A DNA stretch of 64,000 bases, taken from positions 1 through 64,000 of IMG/VR virus record IMGVR_UViG_3300042988_001309; one strand, 5' to 3'. Made by a program: the position numbers and the translations under genes. This DNA is from a virus. The notes under the pieces were generated by a model, which saw nothing but the letters and a program-made list of their open reading frames with translations, had not been told where the DNA came from and did no database searches. Shown piece after piece: positions 39,062 through 63,700 of the stretch. Each line of letters starts with the position of its first letter. The stretch's first letter is position 1.

Positions 39062-42000
39062 AGGACTGGGAACGGCGAGCCCAGCTCTATGAGGCGTCGC
39101 TCGCCAAGATCATCCGGGCCCATCTGACCCGCCAAGAGCGCGTCGTCATCGAGAAGCTCGGTGGCGCCAAGACCCGCCAGCGCTACGACCGTCACCTGGA
39201 GGCCAAGGCCCGGTTCGGCAACTCCGGCACGGCTCAGCTCACCCCGGCCCGCCTGGCCAGCTTGATGGCCTCTGCCGCTGTGCCCGGCCGCCCCGGCGCC
39301 GCGGCGCGAGCCACCCTCACCCGGTTTGGCGTGAACTGGCAGACCGGCAAGCCCCTCGCCGGTGGCGCCCCCTCGACGCCCGCCCCGAGCGCCCCGAGCG
39401 CACCGAACACCCCGAGCGTGCCCTCGGCACCGAGCGGCCCGCCGCCATCGCCGCTCAAGATGGTCACCACGCTGATGGGCAACTTCGCGCCCGGCACGCC
39501 GCCCTCCCCGTTGGGGAATGGCGTGATCCCGAACGCCCCCCAGTCGGTCCACAACAACGCCGACATCGCTGCCAAGGCCACCGGCTACGCGCCCGGCACC
39601 AACGGCTACGACCTCGCCTACTACGCCTACCTCGACGCGGCCATGGACCATGCCCGAGGCCTGTTCAAGGTCGACCCCACCACCCATGACTTCACCGCCT
39701 CCGAACTGGCCGTCCTCGACGCGGTCGCCACCCACGCCGTCCAGAACCGCATCGCCGCCGGTGCACCATCGCTGGCGATGATCTCCCGCAACCACTTCCC
39801 CCATGCGTTCCCGTTGGCGCCGACGAGCGCCAACCCCAACCCGCCGCTCAATGCCCCCAACACCCCGAGTGCTCCCGCCGCGCCGACGCCGCCCCCAGTG
39901 CCGTCATCGCCCACGCCGCTGGCCAACCCCGGCACGCCGACCATCGTGTTCCAGAACCCGCTGCCCATCGAGCTGCCCGGCGCGATCTATGCCAACGCCA
40001 CCAACTACTTCGGGGCCAACCTCATCAACGCCTCGCCGCCCGTGGGTGCCGCGAACCCCTATCGGGCCTTCCCGAGCCAGATGGCCTATGCCACCTACGT
40101 GGTCGGCGCCATCGAGTCGATCCAGCGCAACGGCTTCCAGGTCGATCCGGCCACCGGCGACTACGACCCGGCCGACTTCGCCAAGTTCGACGCCGACGGG
40201 GCTCACGCCACGTTCACCTACTACAAGTTCGGCACCCCGCCGCCGCTCATGGTGTCGGCCTCGCTGTGGCCGACCGGCGCCCACAGCCCCGGCGTCTCGA
40301 TCACCACCACCGGCGTTGCGGTGGGTGCCCCGTCATCGCCCCCGCCACCCCCGCCGGTACTCATGGTCCCCTCGCCGATCGGCATGGTCGCCGCGGGCTC
40401 CCCGGTCTCCCCGCTGCTCGGTGGTGGCCAGCTCCCGGCGATGCCCCAGTCCATCCATGACGCCGCCAACCGTCGAGCGTTGAGCGTCGGTCTCTCTCCT
40501 GGCTTCCAGCCCGGCACCAACGGCTACGACCTCGCCTACTACGCCTACATCGACGCCGTGTACGTCCAGGCGTCCCCGATCATGGGCCAGTCCCAGGTCC
40601 ACCTCGACCCCAACACCGGGGACTTCACCCCCGCCGACCTGGTGCTGCTCGACAACGTCGCCTCCAGCGTGGTGGCCAGCACCATGATTGCCGGAGTCCC
40701 CAGCTCCACCATGGTCCAGCGGGGCAACATCCCCGCCAACTTCGCCAACGGTGCCACCCCCTCGCTCAACGCCCCCAACACCCCGAGCCCGTCATCGGGC
40801 GCCGGTGTACCCCAGGGCCCCTCGATCTCCGCCACGGTCGGCACCCCGACCCCCGCCTTCGGTGGTCCTCCGACCCCTCCGGCCGGGCCGATGCCGTACC
40901 CCGACATCCACGATGTCCCCGACCTCCCCGACCCGCCGGACACCACCCCGGTCCCCGACGACCAGATCGTGCCCACCGTGTCCGGGCTCGACGAGCTGGT
41001 GGCCATGGGCCCGATCCCGCGGGCCAAGTCGCTGGCTGCCACCGTGCAGGCCCACCGGATGCGGATGCGGGCCTGGATCGGTGGCGACCCGATGCGCCAG
41101 GACCTGGCCGACGCCGCCGCCATGTGGATCGGCGACTACCAGCTCCCCATGCGCGAGTACCAGGAGATCCGCTCGTCGGCCGACTACCTGGCCAAGAAAC
41201 CCCGGGGCATGAAGGGCGGCCGCCTGGCCATGCGCCACGCCGCCACGTTGATGGCCGCCGCGGCCACCGGGCCCGTCATCCCCCGCATGTACCGGGGGAT
41301 CACCGTGACCTCCAGCGACCTGACCAACATGACCAAGCCGGGCTACCGCTTCACCGGCTCCCTCGACGCCTACTCGCTCAACCGGGACCGGGCGCTGGCG
41401 TTCGGGAACCTGCGCTCCACCAGCGGCTACGGCGGTGGCAACAACCTGGTGATCATCGAGATCGACGGCGGCCACGGCGTGCCGGTCAGCCCCTTGTCGC
41501 ACGCCACCGGCGCGGTGAGCTACCTCGACGCCGAGGAGATCCTGTCGTCGGGTGTGTGGGAGACCGTGTCGTCCTCGACCGCGTCCGAGACCCCGATGAC
41601 CATGGTGCGCGACGGCATGACCCCCGGATCGAGCCCTCGGACGGTCACCACCATCCGGGTCCGCCAGATCGTGCGCGGCTACGACCCGGTCACCGGCGAC
41701 GAGATCCCCGTCATTGCCCCCGCTGCCGCCACCAAGGCCGCCCGGCGCGACTACCCCGAGATCATTCCGCACGAACCGATGTACCCGAAACCCAGCGACT
41801 TCACCCCCGACCAGGAGGCGATGAACCTGCTGGTGTGGGTGGACGACGGCATCGAGCTGCCCGAGGTCAAGGGCATCCACCTGCCCGGCATCTTCGACGT
41901 GGCTGCGTTCGCCAAGCGACTCATCGACGACGCCCTCGACTGGCTCAAGCTCATGTACGGCGACTGGGGGAGCGCCACGGCCCGTCATCTCGGCGCCGCC

Positions 42001-44598
42001 GACTGGAACCCCCGCGACCCCGCCGTGGTGCAGGCCATCGAGAACCAGGCCGAGCGGATGCGCGGCGTGGCCGAGACCACCTACAAGCTCATCGAACAGC
42101 GCATCGCCGAGGCCGAGGCCGAGGACCTCCCGATGCCCGACATCGTCGACCGGGTCGCCGCCGACTTCGCCCGCCAGCGCGAGACCCGTGCCGAGACGAT
42201 CGCGGTGACCGAGGTCTCCGCGGCGGCCAACACCGCCAGCTTCCTGGCCGCCAACCAGATCCCTGGCGCCACGCTCACCAAGACGTGGTGGACGATGCAG
42301 GACGAGCGGGTCCGCCCCGCCCACCGCCACGCCCATGGCCAGGTGGCCGACGTGATGGAGCCCTTCGTCGTCGGTGGCGTGCCGATGATGTTCCCCCACG
42401 ACCCGTCCGCCCCGCTGCACCTGATCATCAACTGCCGGTGCCGGATCATCTGGAAGCCGGTGTACGTGATGACCGGAGCGACCGCTCCCAACCCGGCGCT
42501 GGCCAAGGCGTGGTCCAGCCGTCATGGCCAGTCCAAGGCCCGCTTCGGCAACCGGGGCGGGGCTCAGCTCACCCCGGTGGCCCTTGCCCGGCTCCTGGCC
42601 TCGGCGGCCACCCCCGGCAAGCCCGGCGCCGCCGCCCGCGCCACCCTCACCCGGTTCGGGGCCCGTGTCCCCGCCCCGGCGCCGGTGCCGACCCCGGGAG
42701 GCTCGCTCGACGCCGTCAAGGCCCGCATCGCCGCTCTCCACGCCTCCGGGCCCCAGGCTTCGTGGTTCGGGGCGCAACGGCTGCGCAACCAGATCGACCC
42801 CAACGACCCGGCCAGCCGGGAACGAGCCGTGCAGGCCACCATCGACGTGATGCTGGGCCGAGGCCAACTCGACTACGACCGGATCATGACCGACGACGGC
42901 CTCAACGCCATCCGGGACCTCATCGACAAGCGCCTGGCCGGACAACCGCCCAAGGGCCGCATCGGCGCGATCGTCGAGGAGACCTTGAACCGGCGCATGG
43001 GCGCCGCGCTGCGCGACGTGGACCCCGACGAGGTCGCCTCGATGATGGCCAGCCGCTACCTGCCCACCCAGGGCGACTGGGACGACAAGGCCATCCGCCA
43101 GCGCGACCGTGACTACGCCGCCGCGGCTGCCCGTCATGTCCTGGCCGACTACCTGACCCGCACCACGTCGAACTGGCCGCCCGCTCCGGCCGGGATGGAC
43201 GACACCCGCCGGGACCTGATCCGCGACTCGATGACCGCAGGCCTGCGCGGCACCAACGAGCCCGGCATCGCCGCCGTGCTCGCCCAGGCCCCCAGCCCCC
43301 GGGCCATGGCCAACGAGGCCGAGATCAACGCCATCGGCTCCGCCATCATCGACGCCGCCCTGTCCGACAAGGTCACCGACCAGGCCGCCCTCGACGCCGC
43401 CTACGACGCCGCCTCGACGGCCCACCACGCCTCGATGCGAGCCCTGGCCGTCCACGACGACGCCTACGCCACCTCGGCCGCCGCTGCCGTCATCGCCTCG
43501 TCCAACTCGATGGGGCTCCCCGACCCGCCGGTGACCGGCTGGGTGGCCATCGACACCAAGGTGGACAAGCGCCGAGGGGCGATCACCCTCATCTGGGGCA
43601 ACGGTGGGGACACCTTGTCGATGCGGATCACCGCCCACGGCAACATCCACGCCCGCTACACCTCCGCCGGTGGGGTCGAGCGTGACGCCAGCCCGGCCAT
43701 CTCCGACCAGGCCGCCTACGACGCCCTCGCCCAGGCCTCGGCCGACCTCCAGACCATGCGGGCCGCCTACGACGCCAGGGGCATGTACGGCATCCGCCGG
43801 GTCGAGCGCGACGCCATCTTCGACGCCCTCGGCCAGATCCGCCCGTTCGCCAAGGGCCGCACCCCCCTCGTCGCCACCGACAACACGCCCATCGCCCACA
43901 ACTTCGGCAGGGGCCACGGCGCCCCGCCGCCGGACCAGACGGTGATCGACGCCCTCACCTGGGCCACCGACTACTACCCGAGCGACTGGGTCGACGCCGG
44001 TGACGCCAACGGCCCGGTGTACGGGATGGGCTTCGACCGGCGCGGGTTCTTCACCCAGGTCCCCGACCCGAGCGGCAAGATGGTGCCCGTCATCATCGCC
44101 AGTCGGTCGGACCCGAGCCCGCTGGTGGAAGGTGGCGGCACCCCCGAGTTCAACGAGACCATGGCCCATGAGTACGGGCACTACATGGAGATGGTGATCC
44201 CCGGCCTGACCGACGCCGAATACGCCCTGTGGTATCGCCGCACCAACGGCGGCGAGGGGGCCATCTCGATGAACGAGGCCGAGGGGGTCCCCGCTCAACT
44301 CCAGGCCATGGGCATGGGCTATGGGCCCGAGGAGATCACCGCCCCCGACGAGTTCCTCTACGCCTACATGGGCAAGATTTACCCTGGCGGCACCCAGACG
44401 AACCGGGAGATGTTCACCATGGCGATCGAGTCGCTCGTCGGTGGCCGCGGCGGCAAGCTCCCCGACGGCTCCCGGCCCAAGAGCTTCGTCCAGGGCGACC
44501 GGGACATGGCCAACTGGCTCGTCGGCCTGCTGGCCACGCTCAACCTCGGACCGGGCAACACCGCCACCACCTCGACCACTGCCGGAGCGCCGTCATGA
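39040..44598 (+). CDS. Polyvalent MuF (gp7-like) minor head protein with ADP-ribosyltransferase-like and zincin domains
   Basis: MuF motifs RAETIAVTE, KTW...D.RVRPAH, INCRC (~41870-42460); YRG..S..EE (41290-41540); HEYGH (44167). Confidence 0.85.
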   Translation: MDDAAWVEDWERRAQLYEASLAKIIRAHLTRQERVVIEKLGGAKTRQRYDRHLEAKARFGNSGTAQLTPARLASLMASAAVPGRPGAAARATLTRFGVNWQTGKPLAGGAPSTPAPSAPSAPNTPSVPSAPSGPPPSPLKMVTTLMGNFAPGTPPSPLGNGVIPNAPQSVHNNADIAAKATGYAPGTNGYDLAYYAYLDAAMDHARGLFKVDPTTHDFTASELAVLDAVATHAVQNRIAAGAPSLAMISRNHFPHAFPLAPTSANPNPPLNAPNTPSAPAAPTPPPVPSSPTPLANPGTPTIVFQNPLPIELPGAIYANATNYFGANLINASPPVGAANPYRAFPSQMAYATYVVGAIESIQRNGFQVDPATGDYDPADFAKFDADGAHATFTYYKFGTPPPLMVSASLWPTGAHSPGVSITTTGVAVGAPSSPPPPPPVLMVPSPIGMVAAGSPVSPLLGGGQLPAMPQSIHDAANRRALSVGLSPGFQPGTNGYDLAYYAYIDAVYVQASPIMGQSQVHLDPNTGDFTPADLVLLDNVASSVVASTMIAGVPSSTMVQRGNIPANFANGATPSLNAPNTPSPSSGAGVPQGPSISATVGTPTPAFGGPPTPPAGPMPYPDIHDVPDLPDPPDTTPVPDDQIVPTVSGLDELVAMGPIPRAKSLAATVQAHRMRMRAWIGGDPMRQDLADAAAMWIGDYQLPMREYQEIRSSADYLAKKPRGMKGGRLAMRHAATLMAAAATGPVIPRMYRGITVTSSDLTNMTKPGYRFTGSLDAYSLNRDRALAFGNLRSTSGYGGGNNLVIIEIDGGHGVPVSPLSHATGAVSYLDAEEILSSGVWETVSSSTASETPMTMVRDGMTPGSSPRTVTTIRVRQIVRGYDPVTGDEIPVIAPAAATKAARRDYPEIIPHEPMYPKPSDFTPDQEAMNLLVWVDDGIELPEVKGIHLPGIFDVAAFAKRLIDDALDWLKLMYGDWGSATARHLGAADWNPRDPAVVQAIENQAERMRGVAETTYKLIEQRIAEAEAEDLPMPDIVDRVAADFARQRETRAETIAVTEVSAAANTASFLAANQIPGATLTKTWWTMQDERVRPAHRHAHGQVADVMEPFVVGGVPMMFPHDPSAPLHLIINCRCRIIWKPVYVMTGATAPNPALAKAWSSRHGQSKARFGNRGGAQLTPVALARLLASAATPGKPGAAARATLTRFGARVPAPAPVPTPGGSLDAVKARIAALHASGPQASWFGAQRLRNQIDPNDPASRERAVQATIDVMLGRGQLDYDRIMTDDGLNAIRDLIDKRLAGQPPKGRIGAIVEETLNRRMGAALRDVDPDEVASMMASRYLPTQGDWDDKAIRQRDRDYAAAAARHVLADYLTRTTSNWPPAPAGMDDTRRDLIRDSMTAGLRGTNEPGIAAVLAQAPSPRAMANEAEINAIGSAIIDAALSDKVTDQAALDAAYDAASTAHHASMRALAVHDDAYATSAAAAVIASSNSMGLPDPPVTGWVAIDTKVDKRRGAITLIWGNGGDTLSMRITAHGNIHARYTSAGGVERDASPAISDQAAYDALAQASADLQTMRAAYDARGMYGIRRVERDAIFDALGQIRPFAKGRTPLVATDNTPIAHNFGRGHGAPPPDQTVIDALTWATDYYPSDWVDAGDANGPVYGMGFDRRGFFTQVPDPSGKMVPVIIASRSDPSPLVEGGGTPEFNETMAHEYGHYMEMVIPGLTDAEYALWYRRTNGGEGAISMNEAEGVPAQLQAMGMGYGPEEITAPDEFLYAYMGKIYPGGTQTNREMFTMAIESLVGGRGGKLPDGSRPKSFVQGDRDMANWLVGLLATLNLGPGNTATTSTTAGAPS

Positions 44599-44900
44599 GG
44601 AAGCTCAAGGTCAACGACAACGCCGGGCATTGGATCGCGGTCGTCGACCTCGACGGCCAGCTCACCTGGTCCTACGCCCTGCCGGAGATCGGCGAGTACC
44701 ACCAGGAACTGATCGAGTGGGGCCGCCCGTGCGCGTGGGGGGAGCGCACCGTGGCCGCCACCGACGTGCCCGGCGAGCCCGGCTTCATCCCGGCGATCTA
44801 TGAGGCCCTCGGCTGGCGCCCCTACATCGCCGAGGCGGTGGGGGACTGGTCGGGCTCGATGCCCGATCCCGGCGACCTCCCCGACGGCGCGGTGCCCTGA
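44595..44900 (+). CDS. Small acidic protein, candidate immunity protein
   Basis: ATGA-coupled to the MuF polyprotein; 101 aa. Confidence 0.55.
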   Translation: MRKLKVNDNAGHWIAVVDLDGQLTWSYALPEIGEYHQELIEWGRPCAWGERTVAATDVPGEPGFIPAIYEALGWRPYIAEAVGDWSGSMPDPGDLPDGAVP

Positions 44901-44942
44901 CCGTCACCAGGTCAACCCGGCATCATCGGCAACGATGGTGGC

Positions 44943-47900
44943 ATGGCGTTCGTGTGGAGATGGGCCCCCGGTGAAGTGAAGGCCACGGTGGCAGGGACGG
45001 CCAACCGTTTCGGCAACCTCGGTGGCTCCCAGATCAACGCCGCCAAACTCGTCTCGCTGGTGACCCGAGCCGCTGTGCCCGGCCGCCCCGGCGCCGCGGC
45101 GCGAGCCACCCTCACCCGGTTCGGCTACGACGCCGCTGGCAACCCACTGTCGGGGCAAGGGCCCACGGTCGCCCAGATGGCCGCGGCGGCCAACGTCCCC
45201 GGCCCCAACGTCCCCAACGCCCCGAGCCCGTCATCGCCCAACGCCCCTGGTGCGCCCTCGACCCCGAACGCACCCAGCGCCCCCTCTGCGCCGTTGCCGC
45301 CCCCCCAGCCGACGGCGCCGAACGCCCCCGGCCCGGTGTCGTCCTCCACGCCTGGGCCGGGGGCACCTTCCGCCGCTGCGCTGCCAGCGATGCCCTCGGT
45401 GCCCGGCTCGGTGGCCGGTGCGAACACGGTGCCCGTGCTCGACGCCAACGGCTCACCCCGCCCCGTCATGACGGTCGACAAGGTCGACGACTTCCCGACC
45501 TCCAACGCCATCGTCGACTCCTCGATCATCCTGTCCGACGCCCTCACCGAGGTGGTGACCACCATGGGTGGCACCTACGGCGACGACACCCCCGAGAACT
45601 ACACGGCGGTCAACGCCTTCGTGACCGAGGCCGCCCAGACCCTGGTGGACCTCGACCTGGCCGCCAACTTCGACGCCGGGCTCGGCGCCAACCACCGCCC
45701 CTGGCCCACGGCCGACCAGCTCTACACCGCCGTCACCCGTGGCTACCAGGCGGCCTGGCAGTCGGTGGCCAAGCTCCACGGCGACACCCCGAGCGACCAG
45801 AGCACGACCGACGAGGTGCTCACCCCCGGGCCGGGATGGCACTCGCCGATGACCGGCCGGGACTACCCCGGGATGCCCGCCGACGTGCCCCTGCCCGACT
45901 ACTTCGACAACGTCACCATGGGGCCCGAGCCCACCTTGCCGAGCGGCTCCCCGCGGCCCCCGCTGCGCCTCCCCGATCCCAATCTGCCCCAACGGCCGAC
46001 CGTCATCGTCAACCAGGACGGCCGCCTGTTCAGCCTCATGGCCTCGATCTCCTCGGCGTTCCGCACCACCTACGGCAAGGACTCCCCGGAGCGCCGCATC
46101 GCCATCGGCGCGTTCCTGGCCGAGACCTCCCAGAGCGCCACCGACTTCGGCTTCAAGCCCACGGGCTGGGGCTCGTTCGCCAACGGCAAGAGCCCGACCG
46201 ACGAACAGCTCATGGTCATCGCCGACCGGGGCCGCCGCTCGGCGTTCCAGTCGGTCGCCGACTTCCACGACGCCCAGCTCGCCCCCGCGGCCGTCACCGA
46301 GCGCGACGACATCTATCTGCCCGACCGGGGCGAGCAGACGATCAAGGTCAACTCGCTCACCGACGTGGTCGACGACGCCACGCTGCCCTACGTTGAGATC
46401 CCGCCGAGCTGGGGCAACGGCGGCCCGGGAGCCGCCAAGAGGCCCTCCGACGCCGAGCTGGCGTGGAAGTTCTCCCTCGACTACGGCGCCCCCGGAACGG
46501 TCGCTCAGCGCCTCGCCTACAACACCTGGGCCGTGTGGGCCTCCAAGTGGCGACGCAACGACCCCGCCAAGTACCGGGTCCTGGCGATGTCGACGGCCGA
46601 GGCCCAAGGCATCGAGGAGAACGCCCGGTTCGACATGGTGACCAGGGTCCTGGCCCACCCCTCGACCGAGGCCATCGCCGTGCCCGGCTCGCGTTCGGTG
46701 CAAGACACCGAGCACCGCGAGTGGGTCGAGCTGCCCGCTGGCGCCGGAGCCCCCGACCCCAGGGCCAACCCGGGCAAGACCTACACCGCCGCCGGACTGC
46801 GCGATGGGTCGGACCCCTACGTCCCCCGCCCGGTCGGGCTGGCCCGCTCGGGGAGCGCGTTCGACAAGCTCATCGACAACCCCATCGACGCCGAGTGGAT
46901 GACCAGCCACGGCTATCCACCCGACCCGGTGCTCCTCGCCGTGGCCCAGTCGGCGTGGGCCGATGCGGTGAACGAGCGGACCTTCTACGCCGAGCGCAGG
47001 GGCTACTCCGTCATCCCCTCGATCAACACCATCGTCCTCGACGCCGAGACCGACATCGCTCGACGCCTGGCCGACGCCCAGTGGTCGCGCACCCAGGACC
47101 CGCCGGTGCCGATCAACCTCGGCTGGGGAGACGGTGTCAAGGACGACGACTACTCGGTGCTCACCGACCCGTACCTGTTCGGGCCCAACGGCCGCACCGG
47201 CGCCAAGAACCTGTGGGACCTCAACTTCGACGCCTGGGAGAAGATGGGCGGGGACCGTAGCTCCGTCATCGCCCGGAGCACCCAGCTCATCGCCGACCAC
47301 AAGTACGCGCCCGACGACGTGACCCCGCTGCTGCGCACCGACTTCCGGCGCGGCTCACCGGCGATCGACATCCCCCACGACTACCTCGACGCCTACCTCA
47401 AGACCGGCGGCATGGACGTGGCCCGCCGGGACCGCTCGGTGCTCGCCCAGAACGACCAGTTCGCCATGCTCTCGTTCACCCCCGACTCGGCCTATGCCCA
47501 GTGGATTGCCGTGGACATCGCCAAGCGCCGCGTCGACGGCGAGGCGACCCGTCATGACGACATGATCCAGGCCCGCATCGACGACGCCACGGCCCAGGAC
47601 CTGATCGCCTTCGCCCAGGGGCTCGCCGGTGTCGATGTCAGCGACCCGACCGCCCCCCAGTACCCGGCCGGGCGCGACACCTACATCGTGGCCCTGGCCG
47701 CCATGGGCAACCAGTTCGACCAGCTCCCCAAGATCATCTCCGGCAACGACATCGACGCCGCCAAGGCCGCCGCCGTGACCGCCGTCAAGGCCGCCTCGAT
47801 GGCGCAGTTGCCTGGCCTGGAAGCCGCCCTCGCCTTCGCCAAGTCCGGCGACCCCAACGACGACTACGGCTGGGCCGACCTCGACGCCGAGTACCAGGCG

Positions 47901-50900
47901 ATCAAGATGGCCATCGGCCCCGCCGCGGCACGCGCCTACCTCGCCGGTGGGCTCTCCCTGGTCGCTCAGGAAGGCAACACGCTCGCCCAGCCGCGCGACA
48001 ACGCCCGCGGCGTGCTGGCCCGTGTCCTGGAAGCGCGTGACGCCCAGACCCCGCTCGACCCGACGCTCATCTCCGCCCTGCTGGCCGTCAACCCCGAGCT
48101 GCTCCCGATCCAGTACCGGCCGGTGGTGCGCCAGCCTCGGGTCACCCTCAACCTCGTCGGCGACCCGCTGCCGCCGGTGAAGGTGGGCCTCCCCATCGGT
48201 GGGCCCGACCCGGCATCGCTGATGCCGTCACTCGACGTGACGCTCCCACCGCCGGTGGCGCTCCCCGCCGCCGACGCCGACCTCTCGATCCCTGCCGGGC
48301 CTGATCTGACCGGCACGCCGCCGGTGCAGATGTTGGCCGAGATCGAGGTGGGCAACCGCATGGCCCACGCCAACGGCGAGCCCCGGCCGTGGCTGATGGA
48401 GAGGGCGGCCAGCGCTCTGGCCAACGCCATCGAGGGCTACGTCTGGGAGACCTGGGACGGTGGGCCGGGAAGCGCCCACGACCAGAAGTTCAACACCCAA
48501 CAGGTCGACGTGCCCGCCGGTGAGGCCGTCATCCGCCTGCTGTCGAGGGACGTGACCAACTTCGGGATGGTCACCGACGTGGCCCGCCAGAGTGCCACGG
48601 CCGAGATCGTCGGCAAGATGGTCGACTCCTGGAACGGCGACCAATACAGCTTCCGCTACGGGTCCAACAAGCCCCCCACGGGCCTGTCCGGTCCGGCCAT
48701 GGCCGACGTGGCCATCAACCTCGTCAACAAGTTGCTCGGCGACCCCGGCCCTGACGCCAACCCCGAGCCCGGCCGCCCGAACCGTGGCTGGGTGGGCCGC
48801 GCCGACTCCAACATGCGCATGATGATGGCCCTCGCCATGGTCCCCAAGGTCCGCGACGACGGGACGATCTCCGGGCGGGGCGAGCGCCTGGTGTTCCAGG
48901 CCCTCGACACGATCTCCAAGGCCCAGCTCAACGAGCTGGGCGGCCGCTACGACCTCACCAAGCTGTCGATGCCCTCGATCGACCAGCTCCGCGGCATGAA
49001 GTTCTTTCGCCCGGTGGCGGCCACCTACCAGCGGGCCGTGCTCAACGGCGACGACCCGATCGCCGCGGTCGACGCCCTCATCGACAACATCGGGCCGCTC
49101 AACCTCGCCGTCACGGGGTCCACCAGCTACGACTCGCCGACCCAGAAACTGCGCTTCCACGACCTGATGCAGCAGGCCGGGAACGGCATCGTGCGCGCTG
49201 CGCTCCCGCCGCACAGTTCGGCGCCGGGCACCGGCGCCAACAAGTGGCGCTTCGTCATGACCGGCGACCTCTACGTCGAGCTGGGAGTCGACATCGGCGA
49301 CCCCCAGGCGACCACGATCGAGTTCACCATGGCCTGGAACGCCGCCATGGCCAAGCTCGACGAGTACGACAAGAAGTACCCCGGCATCAAGGACAGCCCC
49401 GAGGCGTTCACCTCGGCCCGGTTGTCGGGCGCCCGCAAGGCGATGCTCAACGCCGCCAAGAAAGAATGGGACGCCCTCCAGAACGGCTCGCGCAAGCCGC
49501 TCAAGCTCACCGACTACTCGGCGGTGCCGAGGGCCAAGTCGCCCGACCCGGCGCTCGATCCCCAGCTGGCGATCATCGCCCCCGGCTCCGGCCCGGTCGT
49601 CGTCCCCTACTGGCTCGACGCCAAACAGCTCCCCAACACCAAGGCCTACTTCGACGCCCGAGGCGCCGCTGGGGACCGGGGCCGCAAGGTGGCTGGCCGC
49701 GAGGTGTCCGGGGCGCTCGACGCCCGCTACGCCAACGACCCGGCGGGACGGGCCGACCTCGACGACCTGATCGGCGCGGTCACCGTCGGGCTCCCCGGCG
49801 ACAAGGTCGGCGATGTCACCTTGGCCGCCTACTCGGCCGCCGCCAACCCGGCCGCCATCCACCCCCTCGACGCCGCCTACAACGCCGCGGCCGAGATGGT
49901 CATGACCTACAAGCTCGACCGTGCCACGGCCGACGTGAACAGCCAGGGCGACCTGCCCGGCCTCAACGACATCGAGTCGGCGATCTCCGACGACGGCAAC
50001 CGGGCCGTCATCTCGGCGATCTATCGGGCCCAGATCAACGCCAACGCCCGCCCGGTGGTCAACACCCTCGTCGCCGCCCAGACCCTGGTGCGCCACGGGC
50101 AGATGAACCAGAGCGAATACGACTCCCTGGTGAACGTGGTGCAGTCCACCTACCGCCAGCGAGCCATGGCGTCCTCGTTCGCCGCCGCCCGAGCCCGCAT
50201 CGGGGCGATCAACACCGCCACCTACAGCGGCATCGCCTACGACGACCCGGCAGTGGCTCACGCCATGGCCAAGGTCGCCGAGTTCGACATCGTCGCCGAC
50301 ATCCCCGACGAGTCCAAGGTGGTGGCCACCAACGCCGCCATCGCCGTCATCGCCGCCGCCGACATCTTGAACCCCGGCTGGGAGTTCGACGACGACCTCA
50401 AGGGCCAGGTCTGGAACGCCGCCACCGACGCCGCCAACGCCGCCCATGAGCTGCGCTCCAACGGCGAGCCGACCTCGATGGTGTTCAACCCCGACGGGGC
50501 GCTCACCTTCCTCGGCTACGGCGACCGGGCCCCCGAGCAGATCCTCGACGGGACGGTCCACCACGTCCTGGCCCGGCGCTCCAGCCACGTCATGGACGTG
50601 CCGGTGGCGCTCGACTCGCACGTCAACAACGGCGCCTACTACGTGGACGACCCACTCGGCGTGCTGGCCGACGAGGCGCTCGACGAGACGATCAAGAACA
50701 TGGAGCGGGGCCTGCCGGGCTCCAAGCTGGCGGCCAACATCTTGCGCGACGACGGGGGAGCGGTCTACGACGGCCTGCTCCAGGCGATCTATCTGGCCCA
50801 GGGCTACAGCGTCGAGCCCGACATCATCTCCGAGTCCGAGTGGAACCTCGACGTGCAGAGCGAGTTCGGCTTCGCCCGCGGCGTGGGCCCGGCCGACTCC

Positions 50901-52046: not shown

Positions 52047-52071
52047 GGGTGCATCATGCCACAGAGGTTCT

Positions 52072-52089
52072 GGTCAAGGTGACTTGACC
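52072..52089. promoter_or_regulatory. Operator GGTCAA-N6-TTGACC (perfect) between the divergent tRNA and gene cassette
   Basis: GGTCAAGGTGACTTGACC. Confidence 0.8.
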
Positions 52090-52119
52090 TAGAGGGATAC
52101 CAGTCATTATGGTGACCTC

Positions 52120-55326: not shown

Positions 55327-55374
55327 GCCCGCCCATCAGAGTCATCGAGGTTGACCTGGTGCGATGATGGCGTC

Positions 55375-55665
55375 ATGCGGATCACCCTCGGGGCAGGACT
55401 GGAAGTGAAGGCCGGACCGCAAGGCGGGGCCGACCGCAACCGTGGGGGCGCCGAGCAACTGCGCCGCTACTGGACGGTCGGGCCCGGCGCGGCCCGTATC
55501 CGCTGGGGCACTCCCGGCGACTGGACGCGCTGCGTCCGCCAGCTCACCGAGCACATGGGCCCTCGCGCCCGTGGCTACTGCCAGCTCCGTCATATCGAGG
55601 CCACCGGCGTCGGGACCGGCTCCAAGCTGAACCCCGGCCGCCGCAAGGGCCGCAAGCGCGCGTGA
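55375..55665 (+). CDS. Small head-module protein (Cys/His motif)
   Basis: LRRYW..G.GAARIRWGTPGDWTRCVRQL...GYCQLRH..ATG, a motif I associate with actinophage head-morphogenesis proteins. Confidence 0.6.
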   Translation: MRITLGAGLEVKAGPQGGADRNRGGAEQLRRYWTVGPGAARIRWGTPGDWTRCVRQLTEHMGPRARGYCQLRHIEATGVGTGSKLNPGRRKGRKRA

Positions 55666-55666
55666 C

Positions 55667-58600
55667 ATGACCGCCGACCAGGGCCGCATCTTGGCCATGG
55701 CGATCCTGCTGGAGGGCGCGATCCGAGACGCTCCTGCCCTCCCCGGCAAGGGTCCGCTCGCCTCGATCGCCGAGGTCTACAACCGCCTGCTCGCCGACCC
55801 CTCCGATCGCTACGGCGGCCCGGCGTTGATCGAGTTCGTGCTCGACGCCGCCCGCCGTCATGGCGCTGCGGTGCCCGGCGGTGAGGGCAAGTCGATCGAG
55901 CAGAGGTTCGGCAACCGGGGCGGCAAGCTCACCCCCGACGGCCTGCTGCGCCTCACCTCCACCGCCCTGCTCCCCAACGACCGAGGCCGAGCGGCACGGG
56001 CCACCCTCACCCGCTTCACCGGCCGGGGCAAGCTCGACCTCCCCGACGGTGATCGCCGCCAGGTCGACCACGCCCAAGCCTCGACGCTGTTCAACCGTGA
56101 GCGCCAGCGCAACCTGTTCGGCGCCCAGGCGGGCCATCTGTCGGCCGTGGAGATCGGCAAGCGGTTCACCCTGCCCGAGTCGTTCAAGGCCCGCGCCATC
56201 GGGGACCTGATCGCCCAGGACCCCTCCCGCGGCACCGAGTACGGCGGGACCGGCCGGTATCAAGACGGCTTCTACAGCGGCAACTGGAGCGTCGTGCTCG
56301 CCAACGCCCAGCGGCTCGACCCGAGCCTGGACGAGCGCTCCCCGGTCGGTGACGTGCTCGCCGCCTCCCAGCCGCCCGCCATCGGCTTCAACAACCCCGA
56401 ACAGGACCCCGCCTCGATCGCGCTGGCCGCCCGCCTCGCTGCCTCCGCCGACCCCGACGCCGAGCGCCGGGCATGGGCCACCGAGCAGGGCTGGACCGCC
56501 GAGGCCGGATACGTCGCCGCCCTCCAGGGCTGGTGGATCAACGACAGTTCCTCCCCGTGGGCCCAAGCGATGACGCTGGCCGCCGCTCAACGTCTCGGCG
56601 ACCCGAGCGACATGGCCCGCTCGCTCAGTCACCTCCAGGCCAAGGCCGCCGAGTGGGAGCCCGGCACGCTGGTCGGCCAGGACATCCTCGACTCCGCCGA
56701 GGGCCCGGCGCTGCGCCAGGCCGTCATGGCCATCTATGACCACACCCAGGCCCGCCTCGCCGACTACGGGCTCCGGCCCGACGACCTGATCGAGCTGTAC
56801 CGAGGGATCGGCCCCGACAACGAGATCCGCACCGGCGACACCGCCATCGCCGACCCGCTCACGTCGTGGTCGTCGAACCCCGCCGTGGCGTTGTCGTTCA
56901 CCAAGGTCCGCCGCGGCGGATCGGTGCTCAGCGGCTCGGTGCCCGCCCGCTCGATCCTCATGCTCATCACCGACGCCACCGGCTACGGCGGGCTCCACTA
57001 CGCGAAGTGGGAATGGCACCTCGACTCCCAAGAGGAGTTCGTGACCCTCGGTGGCCCGGTGAACGTGACGGTGACCAGGACCCAGGACCCGGTCGGGCTC
57101 CTGCACGGGTCGACCCCGGTCGAGTCGGTGATCGCCCGAGGTCCCGGCTTCAAGTCGGCCCGGCGCGAGGTGTACGTGGACGGCGACAACTGGATGCACG
57201 TCGTGCGCTCCGCCATGCCGTCATCGGGCATGAAGGCCCGGTTCGGCAACGCCGGGACGGCCAAGCTGTCCGCCGCTCGCCTCGCCAGCTTGATGGAGCG
57301 AGCCCCGACGAGCCCCCAGGCGCGAGCCACGCTCACCCGGTTCGGGATCGACTGGCATCGCCCGGCCGCTCCGGCCGCTCCGGCCAAGAACCCCGCCGTG
57401 CCGGAGCGCCTTGTCCTCGGCGTGCCCGGCTGGGACCAACAGTTCACCGCCCACCCCGAGGCGATCGAGCCGGTAATGCTGGCGCTGGAGGCCGAGGACC
57501 GCCTGCGCGCCTACGCCGCCAACGTCGGCACGGTCACCGACCGCTGGTCGGGCCGCTCCGAGGACTATCGGACCACCATCTTCAACAACGCCCAGTCGTT
57601 GCAGGCCGTCATGAAAGCGACGGTCAACGACCCGGACAACATGCCGGTCGATGTGGATTGGACCTCCGAGACCGTCGACATCGCCCACCAGACATGGGTC
57701 GACGCTCGCCCGTTCACCGACTGGTCCGTTCATGGCCCCGAGGACCGTTCGGCGTGGCTGCTCGCCGCGGCCAAGCGCCGGGTCTCGGGCGAGGACTGGG
57801 GCGTGGCGGTGACCAACGTGGCCCGCCGCCTGGCCGACGGCACGGCCCCCGAGGACACCTACGACCCCAACGACCAAGACGCCAACCAGCGGGCCGGGGT
57901 GACGAGGTACGACCCGTTCCTCGATCTCCAGCACGGCTGGGCGCTCTACAACGGTCTGCGCGACCCGGCGGTGACGACCCCCTCGCCCACCCCGCTGTAT
58001 CGGGGCATGTCGTTCACCCCTGACGGCAAGGCCATCGCCGTCGGGGACCGGATCGACATCGCCGCCGCCTCGTTCTCCCTGTCGAGCGACGTGGCCGACT
58101 CGTTCGCCCTCGACCGCAACTTCGACGAGGAATCTCAGGTCGCCACCGATGACGAATCCCTCGCCGCCACCGATCGGATGCGAGCCGAGCACTACCCCAA
58201 CGCGTCGCGCGTCGTGTACGTCGCCGCCCCCGGCACCCCGGGCTTCGATGCCACCAGCTTCTCGGTGCGCGGCGAGCAGGAGTGGCTCGTTGGCGGCACG
58301 TTCACCGTGACCGCCATCGACGAGGGCGACCGCGTCCGCTACATCCACATCGCCCCCGCTGCCACCAAGGCCGCACGCCGGTGGCGGATGGACCCCACCG
58401 ACTTGCCCGCCGATCTGGACTGGCCGGTGCGGCCGTCATCGGGGATGAAGGCCCGTTTCGGCAACGCCCACTCCGCCAAGCTCACCCCGGCCCGCCTGGC
58501 CAGCCTGCTGTCGCGTGCGGCCACCAGCCCCCAGGCGCGAGCCACGCTCACCCGGTTCGGCGTGGATTGGCGCACCGGCGCCATCGCCAACCCACCGGCC

Positions 58601-60544
58601 CCCCGGGTGCCTCGCCGCACGCTTCCCCGTCCGGCCCGTGACGGCAAGTGGCACCTCGTCGGCAACGTCGATGTCCGGGCCCTGCCCACCGACCCGGCCG
58701 ACACCTGGCGGGTGTCGTGTGAGCGTTGTGGCGGCACCGGCTACGTCACCAGCGGCAACGCCGCCCACGGCACGATCTGCTACCGCTGTGGCAGTGGGGG
58801 GGACGAGCCCGCCGTGCCCGTCAACACCGCCACCTCGCCGCTGCCCCCCAAGCTGCTCACCTGGGACGGGGTCGAGCTGCTCGACCAGCACCGCGCCCAA
58901 GTCGCCGCCGACGAGCAGGCCCGCAACGAGGCCCGCAAGGCCGAGTTCGTCCGCAAGCTCACCGTGTTCGACAACGCCGTCATGGCCGACCCCGAGTTCG
59001 GGTCTCGCATGGCCCGCCTGCGCTACCTCGACGACATGGCCCAAGGGGCAACGACCGAGCCCCCATCGGCATCACTGGCCATCGTGCGCCACGACGCCGT
59101 GGCCGACGCCGACGTGGGCAACACGTTCGACCTGACCCCGCACCGCGCCGAGCTGGCCCGAGCGTTCGACGCCGCCGAGGCCTACACCGCCCGGGTCTAC
59201 CCCGAGCTGGCCGCCGAGGTCGGCATCGGGCCGGAACGCTCCGGCCGAGCCCCGAGCCCCAAACAGGTGTCGTACCTGCGCAACCTGCTGCGCCGCTCGG
59301 GCATCAACCCCGCCGAGGCCGACACGGTCGACGACTCGACCATCGCATCGGCGCTCATCGACGCGCTCAACGAGGGCGACACCCGCCGGGCCCGCTACCT
59401 CCTCGACGCCTCAGCCCCGCCGTCATCGGAGCTGGGTCCAGTGCTCGACGCCCTGCTCGCCCGCCACCAGTTCGACCCCGACGCCGAGGAGGCTCCGCTC
59501 CCGGGGCTCAACCCTGACCGCGTGGTCGGCGACATCGGCCGCTCGCTTCTCGACCAGGGCTTCGCGCTACCCGACCAGCTCGCCGCCCGGCCAGCGAACG
59601 ATCCGGTGACCTCGATCGGGCTCGACGGCGCACTGTTCTCCGGCATCCGCGACGAGGGCGAGGCGTCCACGTTCGGGGAACTGCTCACCGCCTGGGCGCG
59701 CTTGCGCGAGCAACGAGCCGCCGACGAGGTCTGGCAGGGCACGCGGGACATCCTCGACGAGCAGGACGCCCTGGCCGACGCGGCCCGGCGCACCGGGGCG
59801 CCTTACCCCGAGGCCGAGATCGCCCGCCTCGGGGATCGACTGCGCGCTCGGGAGGCCGAGCTGACTGCCCAGGCCGAGGCCAAGTACCGCATCGGGCCCA
59901 GCCTGGGTTACGCCGTCATGATGCAAGACGCCTGGAGCGAGACCACCGCCGGTGACCGTTCGGCGGCCATGATCACCGCCGCCGCCAACCAGTTCCCGAA
60001 CCCGACGATGACCGAGGGGCTTCAAGCGTTCCGGCAGTTCCAACCCGGCTTGGCCGCATCTGCCGAGACGATCGTCAACGGCCCAGAGGCCCCGGCGATC
60101 GGCGCGTTCATGGCGACCACCTACGCCGCCACCCAACGGTTCCTCGCCGACAACGGCTTCCCCCCGGGCTCGACGGTGACGCTGTATCGAGGGGTCTCGA
60201 CCGGCGCCGACCAGGTGGGTGGGGAGGTGTTGGTCAACCCGCTCTCATCGTTCACCACCGACCGCTCCATCGCCGAACGGTTCTCGCGTGTCGACTGGGG
60301 CCTGGAGGGCCAAGGCGGGGTGATCACCGCCCAGGTGCCGGTCGAGCGGATCTTCTCGATCGCCGGGATCGGCCCCGGCCACCTCGCCAGCCGGGAAGTG
60401 GTGGTGCTCGGGGGACGGCTCCCGGCATCGGCCGATCTGACCTTCCGGCCGACCTACAAGGGCCTGGGCGGGCCGTCATACATCGACGCCGACAGCGACT
60501 GGCTGCGCGTGGCGGCCCGGTTGATCGCCTCCGCCAGCGCCTGA
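55667..60544 (+). CDS. 1625-aa polyprotein with three ADP-ribosyltransferase-like domains
   Basis: LYRG..SWS..QEE (56798-57040); LYRG..SFS..EQE (57998-58285); LYRG..SFT..SRE (60185-60400); CxxCGGTG zinc finger. Confidence 0.8.
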   Translation: MTADQGRILAMAILLEGAIRDAPALPGKGPLASIAEVYNRLLADPSDRYGGPALIEFVLDAARRHGAAVPGGEGKSIEQRFGNRGGKLTPDGLLRLTSTALLPNDRGRAARATLTRFTGRGKLDLPDGDRRQVDHAQASTLFNRERQRNLFGAQAGHLSAVEIGKRFTLPESFKARAIGDLIAQDPSRGTEYGGTGRYQDGFYSGNWSVVLANAQRLDPSLDERSPVGDVLAASQPPAIGFNNPEQDPASIALAARLAASADPDAERRAWATEQGWTAEAGYVAALQGWWINDSSSPWAQAMTLAAAQRLGDPSDMARSLSHLQAKAAEWEPGTLVGQDILDSAEGPALRQAVMAIYDHTQARLADYGLRPDDLIELYRGIGPDNEIRTGDTAIADPLTSWSSNPAVALSFTKVRRGGSVLSGSVPARSILMLITDATGYGGLHYAKWEWHLDSQEEFVTLGGPVNVTVTRTQDPVGLLHGSTPVESVIARGPGFKSARREVYVDGDNWMHVVRSAMPSSGMKARFGNAGTAKLSAARLASLMERAPTSPQARATLTRFGIDWHRPAAPAAPAKNPAVPERLVLGVPGWDQQFTAHPEAIEPVMLALEAEDRLRAYAANVGTVTDRWSGRSEDYRTTIFNNAQSLQAVMKATVNDPDNMPVDVDWTSETVDIAHQTWVDARPFTDWSVHGPEDRSAWLLAAAKRRVSGEDWGVAVTNVARRLADGTAPEDTYDPNDQDANQRAGVTRYDPFLDLQHGWALYNGLRDPAVTTPSPTPLYRGMSFTPDGKAIAVGDRIDIAAASFSLSSDVADSFALDRNFDEESQVATDDESLAATDRMRAEHYPNASRVVYVAAPGTPGFDATSFSVRGEQEWLVGGTFTVTAIDEGDRVRYIHIAPAATKAARRWRMDPTDLPADLDWPVRPSSGMKARFGNAHSAKLTPARLASLLSRAATSPQARATLTRFGVDWRTGAIANPPAPRVPRRTLPRPARDGKWHLVGNVDVRALPTDPADTWRVSCERCGGTGYVTSGNAAHGTICYRCGSGGDEPAVPVNTATSPLPPKLLTWDGVELLDQHRAQVAADEQARNEARKAEFVRKLTVFDNAVMADPEFGSRMARLRYLDDMAQGATTEPPSASLAIVRHDAVADADVGNTFDLTPHRAELARAFDAAEAYTARVYPELAAEVGIGPERSGRAPSPKQVSYLRNLLRRSGINPAEADTVDDSTIASALIDALNEGDTRRARYLLDASAPPSSELGPVLDALLARHQFDPDAEEAPLPGLNPDRVVGDIGRSLLDQGFALPDQLAARPANDPVTSIGLDGALFSGIRDEGEASTFGELLTAWARLREQRAADEVWQGTRDILDEQDALADAARRTGAPYPEAEIARLGDRLRAREAELTAQAEAKYRIGPSLGYAVMMQDAWSETTAGDRSAAMITAAANQFPNPTMTEGLQAFRQFQPGLAASAETIVNGPEAPAIGAFMATTYAATQRFLADNGFPPGSTVTLYRGVSTGADQVGGEVLVNPLSSFTTDRSIAERFSRVDWGLEGQGGVITAQVPVERIFSIAGIGPGHLASREVVVLGGRLPASADLTFRPTYKGLGGPSYIDADSDWLRVAARLIASASA

Positions 60545-60772
60545 CCATCCCCCCTCACCGCCAGCGTGGCCACCACGCTTGGTAGCGTGAAAGGATCAGC
60601 ACACCTGGTAACGATCAGGCAGAGTGGTCGTGGCTCGGTCGTCCGGGCACGCTGCACGCTCCGATCCGCTTCCTCGGGCTCGCCGTCGGGAGCGTCACCT
60701 TTGACGCCCCGGTGCCCGATCCGATTCCGATCCGCCCCAAACAGCTCGCGCTGTTCGACGACGAGGTGAGCG

Positions 60773-63700
60773 ATGACCCTGGAGTTCAAGAGCGCCCAGA
60801 GCCTGACCGCCGTAGACGCAAACCAGGGGATCGCTGAGGCGATCGTCTCGGTCACCAACATCGTCGACCACGTCGGCGACAAGATCATCCCCGGCGCCTA
60901 CGCCGAGACCCTCAAGACCCGTCGCCCCAAGGTCTGCTGGAACCACAAGTGGGACAACACCGTGGGCAAGGTGCTGGAGATCGTCGAGTTGATGCCCGGC
61001 GATCCACGCCTGCCCGACAAGCTCAAGACGATCGGGGCCGGGGCGCTCAAGGTCAAGGTGCAGTTCAACCTCAACTCCACCCGAGGCCGCGATGCCTGGG
61101 AGGACGTGAAGTTCTACGGCGAGGAGGGCGAGTGGTCGATCGGCTACGACGTGAACGGCCCGACGGGCAAGAGCCGCAACGTCGGGGGAGTGCGGGAACT
61201 GCACCAGATCAACCTGTTCGAAGTCAGCCCCGTACCGTTCGGCGCCGCCCCGCTCACCGGAACCCTCGCCCTCAAGAGCCTCGGCGCACCGAGCGCACCT
61301 GAGGCCGTCATGGGCCGGGTCCCGTTCGACAACGCCGTGAAGGCCTACGGCGCCGGTGCCCAGCTCTCCGCCGGTGGACGAGCCCGCCTCACCGCACGGG
61401 CCGCCCTGCCCGGTCGCGAGGGGGCCGCGGCGCGAGCGACGCTCACCCGGTTCCTCGGCGGCGGCAAGCCCGAGGCGCCACGCCCGGCGGCTCAGCCGAC
61501 CCATTTCATGCCCCCGGACGCCCCGACGTTTCGCTTCCCCGAGAGCATCGACAACCTGCTCGCCGCCGGACCAGACGCCCTGTCGAGGGCCGCGTGGGCG
61601 CCCGTGGAATGGGACGAGACCGAGGACCCCTACTCCTACGAGAGCCGGTACATCATCGGCGGGCCCGACTCCGTCGTGACGCTCACCCCGGACCCCGGTC
61701 AGGGGCGGGCCTTCCTGTCAATCCCCGGCAACGACAGCCTGGAGATCAGGACCGTCGGCGATTTCGAGAAGGCCTACACGGCCATCGACCGCGGCTTCGT
61801 CGGCAAGCTGGAACTGCGGGATCTCTCGGCTCGCAACATCGCCGTCCTCATCGAGGACAACATCCGCGAGTCCGTCAATGCCGATGGGCGCCGGTCCGCC
61901 ACGGTCGACGGCGCCCCGGGGTTCGGCCTGGTGTTCACCCCCGACGGCCTGAACGTGGTCACTCCTGACGGGGCCGTGAAGCGGGTCAATGAGGTCGACG
62001 ACCTGCGCTTCGTCCTCGGCAAGCCCCCCTATCCGCACACCAGCCTCACCGGCTCCACCCCCAAGCCGAGGGGGACGACCTACGTGGTCCCGGCGGGGCG
62101 CATCCCCCGGAACCTGGGGGCGATGACGACCTCCGAACAGTACGAGGACATGGATCGCTACAACGCCTTCGTGGCGGCCGGTGGCGAGGGGCGCACCTGG
62201 ATTCCCACCGTCCGCGACTACCCCGACCCTGGAGGTCACGTCATGAACTGGCCGAAATCCGCCGAGCCCGTCATGGACCCGCTCGTCGCCGACTACCTCG
62301 ATCTGACCGGCAAGGCGTGGACCCGGGGCGGGAAGCTGTCCGACGCGGGTCGAGCCAAGCTGGTGGCACGCGCCGCTGTCCCCGGCAAGGAAGGCGCCGC
62401 CGCCCGCGCGACGTTGACCCGCTACCTCGGCGGCGACAAAGAGGCGGCCGGACGGATGATCCAAGCGCACCGTTCCGGCGACAAGCTGCCCGACGCCGCG
62501 GCGACGGCCAAGATGCCGTCGCGTCGCGAACGGCGCCTCATCGAGGCCGCCACCAACGGTGACAAGGAAGCGGTAGCCGCGTTGCGCGACATGGGTCTCG
62601 AAACCGACGGCCTGCCCGGCTACGGCTTCCAGCGCCCCGAGATCGCCGAAGGACTCGCCAGCGTGGAGCGCGCCGGGTTCGCCCCGTTCGTCCGTCAATG
62701 GAGTCGGGCGACCGGCAAACCGCAAACGGCCAGCGAGATTTACGGCATCCCCCGAGAGTTTCGCGACCCGCCCCCTGGCTATTCGACGAGGCAGGAATGG
62801 ACCGATGCTGTCGGCAGGGGTGTCCGCGGCGGCGACGGCACGGCGGCCAAGCCGTTCCTGGTGAGCGGTGATCTCCCCCCGGAAGAACGGCAACGACTGT
62901 TCAACGCCCTCGCCGACTCGTCCGCGGACGGGGTGCGTGGCGTCGCGATCGGGGACCCCGAACTTGGTGTCTCCGACCCGAAACTCACCGAACGTGCCCG
63001 CGCTCGGGCGGGGAATGACCTGCTGTCGTCGGCGTTCACCACCGCGAAACTCGACGAGTTCCACGCCGACTTCGACGGACGCAAAGACCTGTCCGACGCG
63101 ATTCAATCCGGCACCGGCAGTCAACGCGACCCGTACATCACCGACAACCCCGAAGCGGCCGCCATGGCGATCGGCAAAGGCAGGTTCGTCGAGCTGCAAC
63201 AGCCCGACGAACTGGCGACCATGATCGACGTGATCGCCGACTGGGTGAACGAGGCCAAGGCCAAGGGTGAGAAGGCCCCGACCTACGACCTGTGCCGGGC
63301 CATGGTCAAGGGCACCAACCTGTTCTGCATCGAGTCCAAGGGCATCCCCCGCATCAAGATGCCCCAGCTCTCTGGCATCCCGACGCCGGGCTCTCCGGCC
63401 GACTCGTTGCCCAAGCGGCCCAACGGCGAGGTCGACCTCGTCCCGTTGTTCCTCCAGCACCTGGCGTCCAAGGGCATCCGCTCCCAGCGCACCTCGGTGA
63501 AGGCCAGCCACCTGCGCGCCAGCCAGAACGAGCTGAACGGCGGCAAGGTGTCCGGCATGGTCCAGTCCATGGCCGCGGGCAAGCTCCCGCCGGGCTCGAT
63601 CATCTCGACGACCGACAACTACGTGGTCGACGGGCATCACCGCTGGGCGGCCACCATCGGCACCTCGATCAAACAGGGCGACGATCTCATGGTCGACACC

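Follow-up and report, generated by a model that had tools for sequence, protein, structure and literature searches.

Identification of the repeated tag

What role does a peptide of about 40 residues play when it is repeated eight times across four giant proteins of a phage head module? The question is raised by the IMG/VR virus record IMGVR_UViG_3300042988_001309 (94,093 bp, rated 94% complete), the first 64 kb of which were analysed here and are referred to as the window (64,000 nucleotides). The phage is uncultured, its G+C content is ~70%, and the + strand holds nearly all of its genes. The peptide, called the tag below, was found in a 1852-residue polyvalent MuF protein (P0001), in proteins of 2180 and 1625 residues (P0002 and P0003) and in a 1052-residue S78 prohead protease protein (P0004), and all eight copies lie in genes between the portal and the capsid gene. 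An earlier reading of the letters alone, the original prediction, had taken it for a shared address tag that loads cleaved effectors into the head or pilots their ejection. The reading that we favour, with a probability of roughly 0.45, is that the tag is a cargo header: a protease junction joined to a module that binds some common partner in the procapsid.

Tag copies were detected with a regular expression for the invariant core ARATLTR[FY] and with a hidden Markov model (HMM) built from the copies, both applied to the six-frame translation of the window and to the whole record. Exactly eight matches were obtained by either approach and none besides, with HMM E-values of 1e-21 to 1e-28 each; the next best HMM matches were antisense shadows with E>0.002. 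The copies, each given with its preceding lysine (Lys), are as follows.

39205..39330, + strand: tag copy 1, Lys56 and residues 57-96 of the MuF protein (HMM E 1.4e-27)
42535..42660, + strand: tag copy 2, Lys1166 and residues 1167-1206 of the MuF protein, between the MuF domain and the HExxH region
44979..45125, + strand: tag copy 3, Lys13 and residues 14-60, at the N-terminus of the 2180-residue protein
55889..56023, + strand: tag copy 4, Lys75 and residues 76-117 of the 1625-residue protein
57233..57346, + strand: tag copy 5, Lys523 and residues 524-559 of the 1625-residue protein, short-loop form, ahead of the second cargo unit
58448..58561, + strand: tag copy 6, Lys928 and residues 929-964 of the 1625-residue protein, short-loop form, ahead of the third cargo unit
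61340..61462, + strand: tag copy 7, Lys190 and residues 191-227 of the protease protein, without RFGN, ~25 residues past the S78 domain
62312..62434, + strand: tag copy 8, Lys514 and residues 515-551 of the protease protein, variant without RFGN

The alignment begins with Lys and then Ala or Ser, followed by R-F-G-N-x-G, by Q or K with L-[TS], and by a hydrophobic helix; the C-terminal half consists of a Pro-Gly turn, which is shortened in two copies, and the invariant ARATLTR[FY]. Both protease copies have [YW]-G/T in place of R-F-G-N-x-G, which bears out the earlier remark that they lack RFGN. The tag is N-terminal in one protein (14-60) and near-N-terminal in two (57-96 and 76-117), while the other five of the eight copies are internal. 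BLASTP and phmmer comparisons among the four carriers showed that the tag is the sole segment common to all of them, and a proline-rich stretch lies downstream of six copies (4-8 Pro per next 30 residues, against ~2.5 expected). The confinement of inter-protein similarity to the tag, together with these linkers, agrees with the original prediction that each copy starts a new cargo region. Its placement of eight copies in four proteins also proved exact, as all eight predicted starts coincide with the Lys preceding each copy.

The heptamer CCGTCAT, which encodes Pro-Ser-Ser, was seen just upstream of copies 5 and 6 (57215-57222 and 58433-58440). Internal translation starts at the Met-Lys ahead of these two copies were considered and rejected, there being no Shine-Dalgarno-like sequence upstream.

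Searches for known domains and other carriers

Library searches can reveal whether a motif belongs to a described family. No sequence profile of Pfam, PHROG or PDB matched the tag, and the ESM Atlas gave no usable match; a Pfam search of the tag copies at E<=10 returned nothing apart from one chance match in one copy. The original prediction had allowed for the tag being a known domain of unrelated function, and no library entry of that kind was found in Pfam, PHROG or PDB or with the Rho_N model. The tag is undescribed in every library searched.

When the tag profile was compared with 1.84 billion representative proteins, two carriers were identified besides the phage's own proteins, both of them singletons on 3-5 kb Logan contigs. 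P0008 is an 837-residue S78 protease with two tandem tag copies directly after the catalytic domain, and P0009 consists of a ParB-like domain (33% identical to that of P0004), a tag and a Zeta-toxin-type kinase. A third candidate, P0007, was rejected as a spurious repeat protein. No carriers beyond P0008 and P0009 were obtained from IMG/VR, GTDB genomes and JGI metagenomes (pattern and tblastn), from cultured phages (tblastn) or by two word-index searches, and the tag was absent from eight IMG/VR loci with 46-49% identical proteases and from Gordonia phage Chidiebere. Wherever the context was visible, the carriers were head-module proteins of polyvalent type, the restriction that the original prediction had counted as support for its claim.

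Conservation and predicted structure of the tag

Pairwise nucleotide identity among the eight copies is 46-80%, and 25-50% of the residues that are identical between two copies are encoded by different codons. These values show that selection acts on the peptide, and with the many synonymous differences they rule out a DNA repeat or a recent duplication. Judged by these comparisons, the motif is real and is selected as a peptide. ARATLTR is invariant in the eight copies, and among the eleven copies from three lineages the two core Arg residues were never swapped for Lys. Given that the copies are old, this strictness suggests one specific partner, which the tag would recognise as a small folded module on a leash.

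A model of the tag was obtained with AlphaFold2 from the eight-copy alignment, with a mean predicted local distance difference test (pLDDT) score of 77 and values >90 across the hairpin. The predicted structure comprises a short extended N-terminal part or turn, a helix at positions 17-27, a four-residue turn and a second helix at 32-43. Across its 36-47 residues, the tag has a net charge of +5 to +6 and no more than three acidic residues.

Lysine junctions and maturation sites

The HK97 capsid protein gp5 is cut at K103/S104 (PMC10275583). Lys makes up 1.6-4.8% of the residues in the four giant proteins, yet it stands ahead of every tag copy (as K-A in six of the eight), and the three foreign copies are likewise preceded by Lys. 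A candidate self-cleavage site was observed in the protease itself (a slash marks the putative cut from here on).

61274..61279, + strand: Lys168/Ser169, L-K/S-L-G directly after the S78 domain, candidate self-cleavage site of the protease

The Lys of this L-K/S-L-G column is shared by eight related proteases and by P0008. In the N-terminal region of the capsid proteins of the phage group, three conserved Lys columns were found, K/S-L-G at 97, K/S-L-G at 139 and L-E-V-K/D at 147, the last of which corresponds to the HK97 site by register with 1OHG; K97, K139 and K147 are the candidate maturation sites. The P4-P1 residues ahead of the capsid columns (L-E-V-K, G-Q-A-K) resemble those ahead of the tags (L-E-A-K, G-E-V-K, G-Q-S-K).

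From this pattern, cleavage at the Lys residues ahead of the tags is plausible. Each of the eight copies has the conserved Lys on its N-terminal side, whereas only four have a Lys 8-11 residues downstream, so that a putative cut N-terminal to the tag would leave it on the N-terminus of each released unit.

Proposed role of the tag and alternative explanations

As a cargo header, the tag would begin with a Lys that is P1, the residue before the cut, for the S78 protease. A short turn would come next, R-F-G-N-x-G with degenerate forms in the protease copies, and then a basic helix-turn-helix that ends in ARATLTR[FY]. In the four head polyproteins, flexible Pro-rich leashes would attach the header to enzyme modules at their N-terminal border, and all copies would most likely bind one common partner inside the assembling procapsid. 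Candidates for this partner are P0013, the acidic scaffold-like product of the gene that adjoins the protease gene, and the scaffolding (delta-like) N-terminal domain of the capsid protein. The giant proteins would thereby be recruited, their modules would remain addressed once the protease cuts at the Lys ahead of each header, and the cargo (ADP-ribosyltransferases, the ParB-like domain, the HExxH domain and others) would leave with the DNA. Cleavage, binding partner, encapsidation and ejection are what we infer in this scheme, and a capsid-loading role for the tag is plausible.

Several lines of evidence speak for the header. P0002 and P0003 have no MuF or protease domain, which makes the tag their only candidate entry signal, and it is the sole feature that they have in common with proteins having a known route into heads. 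An independent lineage, P0008, carries two copies at the same place after the S78 domain. By analogy, unrelated leaders on head-module ADP-ribosyltransferase (ART) toxins of Gordonia phages and their neighbours, and inside a mycobacteriophage MuF-protease fusion, may follow the same principle.

Other observations weigh against it. An extreme C-terminal tail common to protease and scaffold is the classical capsid-binding arrangement (lambda C/Nu3, herpesvirus UL26/UL26.5, HK97), and a tail of this kind was found in the protease in addition to the tags.

63893..63928, + strand: extreme C-terminal tail of the protease, common to the C-terminus of the next gene

These 12 residues recur at the exact C-terminus of P0013 (record 64962-64994; 7/10 positions identical) and nowhere else in the genome, both tails reading [AQ]-Y-[VS]-A-L-K-A-x-x-P-H before the stop codon, and the proteases of relatives end in a related tail (..D-E-V-K-A-A-L-A..). 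The tail is probably a capsid-binding one common to the protease and the scaffold, and its separate position, conserved in relatives, is the more classical one for a targeting signal. Relatives with 46-49% identical proteases carry cargo fused directly to the protease, without a tag, and many junctions inside the giant proteins have none. In addition, loading would need no more than one tag in each polyprotein, which leaves the number of eight to be explained otherwise. With the candidate cut N-terminal to the tag, the cargo would keep it, whereas T4 removes its capsid targeting sequence (CTS). What stands of the shared address tag is thus a real, peptide-selected element that matches no known domain, is confined to the head module and lies at junctions behind a fitting Lys; its role as an address is weakened by the separate protease tail and by the untagged cargo of relatives.

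Among these relatives, a 2H-phosphoesterase-like region with two H-x-T-L motifs (L011-L014, ~10700-11300) and a Nudix-box region (L015-L017, ~10800-11200) were each located directly behind the S78 domain, both recognised from the alignment only. In two IMG/VR relatives, the acidic motif D-T-V-x-L-x-x-D-E-V-x-D-x-L occurs three times in the giant head protein (L015:650-1650 and the same region of L016); it is similar to the C-terminal tail of their protease, each match being weak alone.

The best-surviving alternative, which we regard as unlikely, is that the tag is a non-specific DNA-binding module (helix-extended-helix-like) that holds the released enzyme on the packaged genome or on DNA in the infected cell. 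The positive charge with almost no acidic residues and the two short helices predicted around a Pro-Gly turn are what such a tether would need, and one tag per cargo unit fits per-unit tethering. Putative cleavage would also leave the tag on the mature cargo, where a function after scaffold removal is sensible. Rho-N/SAP-type DNA-binding domains are known, although rare, in polyvalent proteins, according to the sections of the describing paper covered here (PMC5512222). However, the tag did not match the Rho-N/SAP family profiles: the Rho_N model PF07498, which was detected in 12 of 14 control genomes, gave nothing in this genome at E<=10. The fold of these domains is two helices with an extended connecting loop; the model of the tag has two helices and a four-residue turn, and fold searches with it returned generic helical hairpins only (best Z 3.5). 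That Arg is never exchanged for Lys and that two Thr residues are strictly kept points to a specific protein partner more than to phosphate contacts, and a tether cannot alone bring the 2180- and 1625-residue proteins into the procapsid prior to DNA packaging.

Decidedly unlikely, in our view, is a tag that only presents the preceding Lys junction to the prohead protease and has no loading role. Such docking would explain the Lys found ahead of all eight phage copies and the three foreign ones, the position of the tag at junctions, the resemblance of the junction P4-P1 residues to the capsid maturation columns and the two copies in the protease polyprotein, where self-processing would be needed. 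Nevertheless, no tag accompanies the conserved capsid sites, the post-S78 site or several further K/[ASG] junctions; relatives whose protease is of the same family, with the same Lys columns, do without it; and forty conserved residues are long for a cleavage signal. In a third alternative, tags would associate with one another: the proteins that have an anchor of their own (the portal for MuF, the C-terminal tail for the protease) would bring in the two giants that lack one, in a multivalent internal body. This would suit eight copies spread over two anchored and two anchor-less proteins, the direct tandem of P0008 and the common pairing of helical hairpins into four-helix bundles, but it is improbable, as partners that each carry a charge of +5 to +6 would tend not to self-associate.

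Comparison with known targeting signals

The tag is a variant of the capsid-targeting or processing signals on polyvalent proteins, not a new category. The HK97 protease gp4 has a C-terminal capsid-targeting tail. The present phage resembles that system in its S78 protease, in a capsid protein with an N-terminal scaffolding-type domain and in a non-catalytic peptide common to other head proteins; it differs in that the tags occupy residues 191-227 and 515-551 of 1052 and not the extreme C-terminus, where a different tail is found. The scaffolding protein of P22 binds coat through a helix-turn-helix at its C-terminus, and the tag is likewise predicted to form a small basic helix-turn-helix. Like the cargo-loading peptides of encapsulins, the tag is short and flexibly linked to its protein, and it could hold cargo against the inside of an HK97-fold shell. 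Unlike these P22 and encapsulin elements, to which it shows no sequence or significant fold match, the tag is N-terminal or internal and not C-terminal. The phi29 scaffold was rejected as a fold match, its Foldseek E-value of ~10 being insignificant.

The T4 internal proteins IPI-III and Alt carry an N-terminal CTS, and DarB of phage P1 an N-terminal packaging signal of 30 residues (PMC7411985, PMC9024508). In common with these, the tag is a short, protease-linked peptide on unrelated head proteins, an ADP-ribosyltransferase among them, and it is N-terminal in the 2180-residue protein. The T4 CTS, ~10-20 residues long, is removed by a cut on its C-terminal side, and the Dar proteins of P1 are without consensus (PMC7411985, PMC9024508). 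The tag, in contrast, is a basic hairpin of 36-47 residues in eight mostly internal copies, also present on the protease itself, which is of the S78 HK97 type and not T4 gp21; its conserved Lys lies on the N-terminal side in all eight copies, the opposite side from the T4 cut.

Polyvalent proteins join disparate domains in one polypeptide in the portal-terminase neighbourhood, and the carriers do the same with MuF, DRAT-like ART, S78, ParB-like and HExxH elements. As giant multi-domain head-module proteins with MuF, ART, HExxH and ParB-like parts, they fit the class as presented in the covered sections of the paper by Iyer, Burroughs, Anand, de Souza and Aravind (2017), where processing by zincin-like peptidases was proposed (PMC5512222). 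The same sections make no mention of a repeated tag between modules, and those of the paper's LPD domains that are registered in Pfam had no match in the carriers.

Analogous leaders in other phages

The 40-residue hairpin is a rare variant, and other peptides seem to serve the same principle elsewhere. Gordonia phages GMA6 and Chidiebere, whose capsid and portal are ~41-46% identical to those of the window phage, have an N-terminal leader of ~30 residues that is common to a head-module ART toxin and the adjacent protein of ~1000 residues. Its core reads V-R-D-x-E-[YF]-W-G-x-P-x-G-T-P-I; a Lys lies a short way upstream, and the linker that follows is basic or rich in Pro. A third, internal copy was observed in GMA6 gp14, giving two or three copies per genome. 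The leader was found in 18 phage records, has no Pfam match, and also occurs inside the 1682-residue 'capsid maturation protease and MuF-like fusion protein' of Mycobacterium phage GodPhather.

L022:4393-4520, 5580-5650 and 6888-7010: Gordonia-type leader copies
L019:5075-5165 and 6154-6240: Gordonia-type leader copies
L024:3990-4075: Gordonia-type leader copy

Like the tag, the leader starts effector modules in related phages, behind a Lys and ahead of a basic or Pro-rich linker; unlike the tag, it occurs in only two or three copies and has no helical hairpin. The two sequences are unrelated, and homology between them was rejected (hhalign probability 0.04).

Tentatively, and on balance doubtfully, the actinophage group may use lineage-specific, interchangeable 'zip-code' peptides coupled to a Lys-specific prohead protease, one folded tag both recruiting the enzyme modules, along with the passengers of the protease itself, to a single receptor in the procapsid and marking the cuts. 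Were this so, any domain behind a tag would be injected cargo, effector repertoires would be readable from sequence, and phage heads would be programmable protein-delivery vehicles. A portable header would give a sequence-legible handle on the capsid entry and splitting of giant polyvalent proteins, would permit injected effectors (ADP-ribosyltransferases, nucleases, kinases) to be predicted from genomes, and would make the tag a candidate by which foreign proteins could be loaded into HK97-type capsids. Although the tag is very rare and its phage uncultured, bench experiments on the idea are possible with the analogous leader of Gordonia and Mycobacterium phages, which have been cultured.

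A further resemblance was seen by eye. The junctions after two ART-like regions (window 41734-41790 and 58367-58420) read T-K/A-A-R-R followed by W or Y and Pro, similar to the start of the N-terminal header of Streptomyces phage Gilgamesh gp48 (L-E-V-K/A-A-R-R-K-W-N-P..G-R-F). An HMM of the Gilgamesh-type header gave no match better than E 0.4 in the genome. In its six frames, the header patterns NPxH..GRF and GHxFxGNQ were met as chance matches only, and the resemblance of the tag to such headers comes down to K-[AG]-R-F. Gp48 (L023:3979-17853) is a hypothetical protein of 4624 residues encoded between a portal-MuF fusion and a protease annotated 'hydrolase', and its C-terminus is homologous to that of the window's MuF protein.

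Carrier proteins and their cargo

The carriers and the domains located in them are as follows.

39040..44598, + strand: 1852-residue polyvalent MuF protein P0001, in the order tag, repeated N-terminal domains, ART-like region, MuF, tag, HExxH region
42175..42450, + strand: MuF domain, residues 1046-1137 (Pfam PF04233, Phage_Mu_F, E 6.7e-12; PHROG head morphogenesis, 1e-30)
44167..44181, + strand: HEYGH, the sole HExxH motif in the four proteins, with no Pfam match
44943..51485, + strand: 2180-residue protein P0002, with one N-terminal tag and ~2100 residues without a family match
55667..60544, + strand: 1625-residue protein P0003, with three tags, each ahead of a cargo unit
60122..60418, + strand: DRAT-like ART domain, residues 1486-1584 of P0003 (Pfam PF07357, 25.4 bits against a cut-off of 25)
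60773..63931, + strand: 1052-residue prohead protease polyprotein P0004, with S78 domain, tag, 280-residue unit, tag, ParB-like unit and C-terminal tail
60833..61258, + strand: Peptidase_S78 catalytic domain, residues 21-162 (Pfam PF04586, E 1.8e-12)
63278..63676, + strand: ParB-like domain, residues 836-968, with a DGHHRW motif (33% identity, E 2e-16, to the N-terminal domain of P0009; PHROG 2859)

The original prediction had named ART-like, zincin and ParB/Srx domains as cargo, and these identities held to differing degrees. One ART was found at the Pfam cut-off and a second is its paralogue; a zincin is suggested by the single HExxH motif, and a ParB-like cargo by the DGHHRW motif, a PHROG of unknown function and the homologue in P0009. 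Units 1 and 3 of P0003 are paralogous (phmmer E 2e-14) and are the only paralogous cargo among the units of the four carriers.

Two smaller modules were also noted. In the N-terminal part of the MuF protein (window 39480-40800), Pro-rich linkers separate two or more paralogous domains, which are ~90 residues long, 46% identical (E 4e-21) and without a family match. A module of ~60 residues, K-Q..L-L-R-x-S-G..S-A-L-I-D-A-L-N, is common to the third unit of P0003 (window 59237-59420) and to residues 283-344 of P0008, with 48% identity.

Organisation of the head module

The head module runs from the large terminase and the portal through the 1852-residue MuF protein, the 2180-residue protein and five small genes to the 1625-residue protein, which is followed by the 1052-residue S78 prohead protease protein, an acidic gene of 350 residues and the HK97-type major capsid gene.

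31492-33012: large terminase
37406..39061, + strand: portal gene, 551 residues (PHROG portal families, E 5e-53; 43-45% identity to Gordonia phage portals)
starts ~63945 and runs to 64997 of the record, beyond the window, + strand: acidic scaffold-like gene P0013
65186-66508 of the record, 3' of P0013: HK97-type major capsid gene

AlphaFold2 without an alignment was uninformative for the scaffold-like P0013 (pLDDT 40). The capsid protein matched the HK97 gp5 structures with E 7e-50 and has an extra N-terminal region of ~100-150 residues, at the place of the scaffolding (delta) domain in HK97. Between terminase and portal, at 36047-36580, there is a gene for a WhiB-like regulator.

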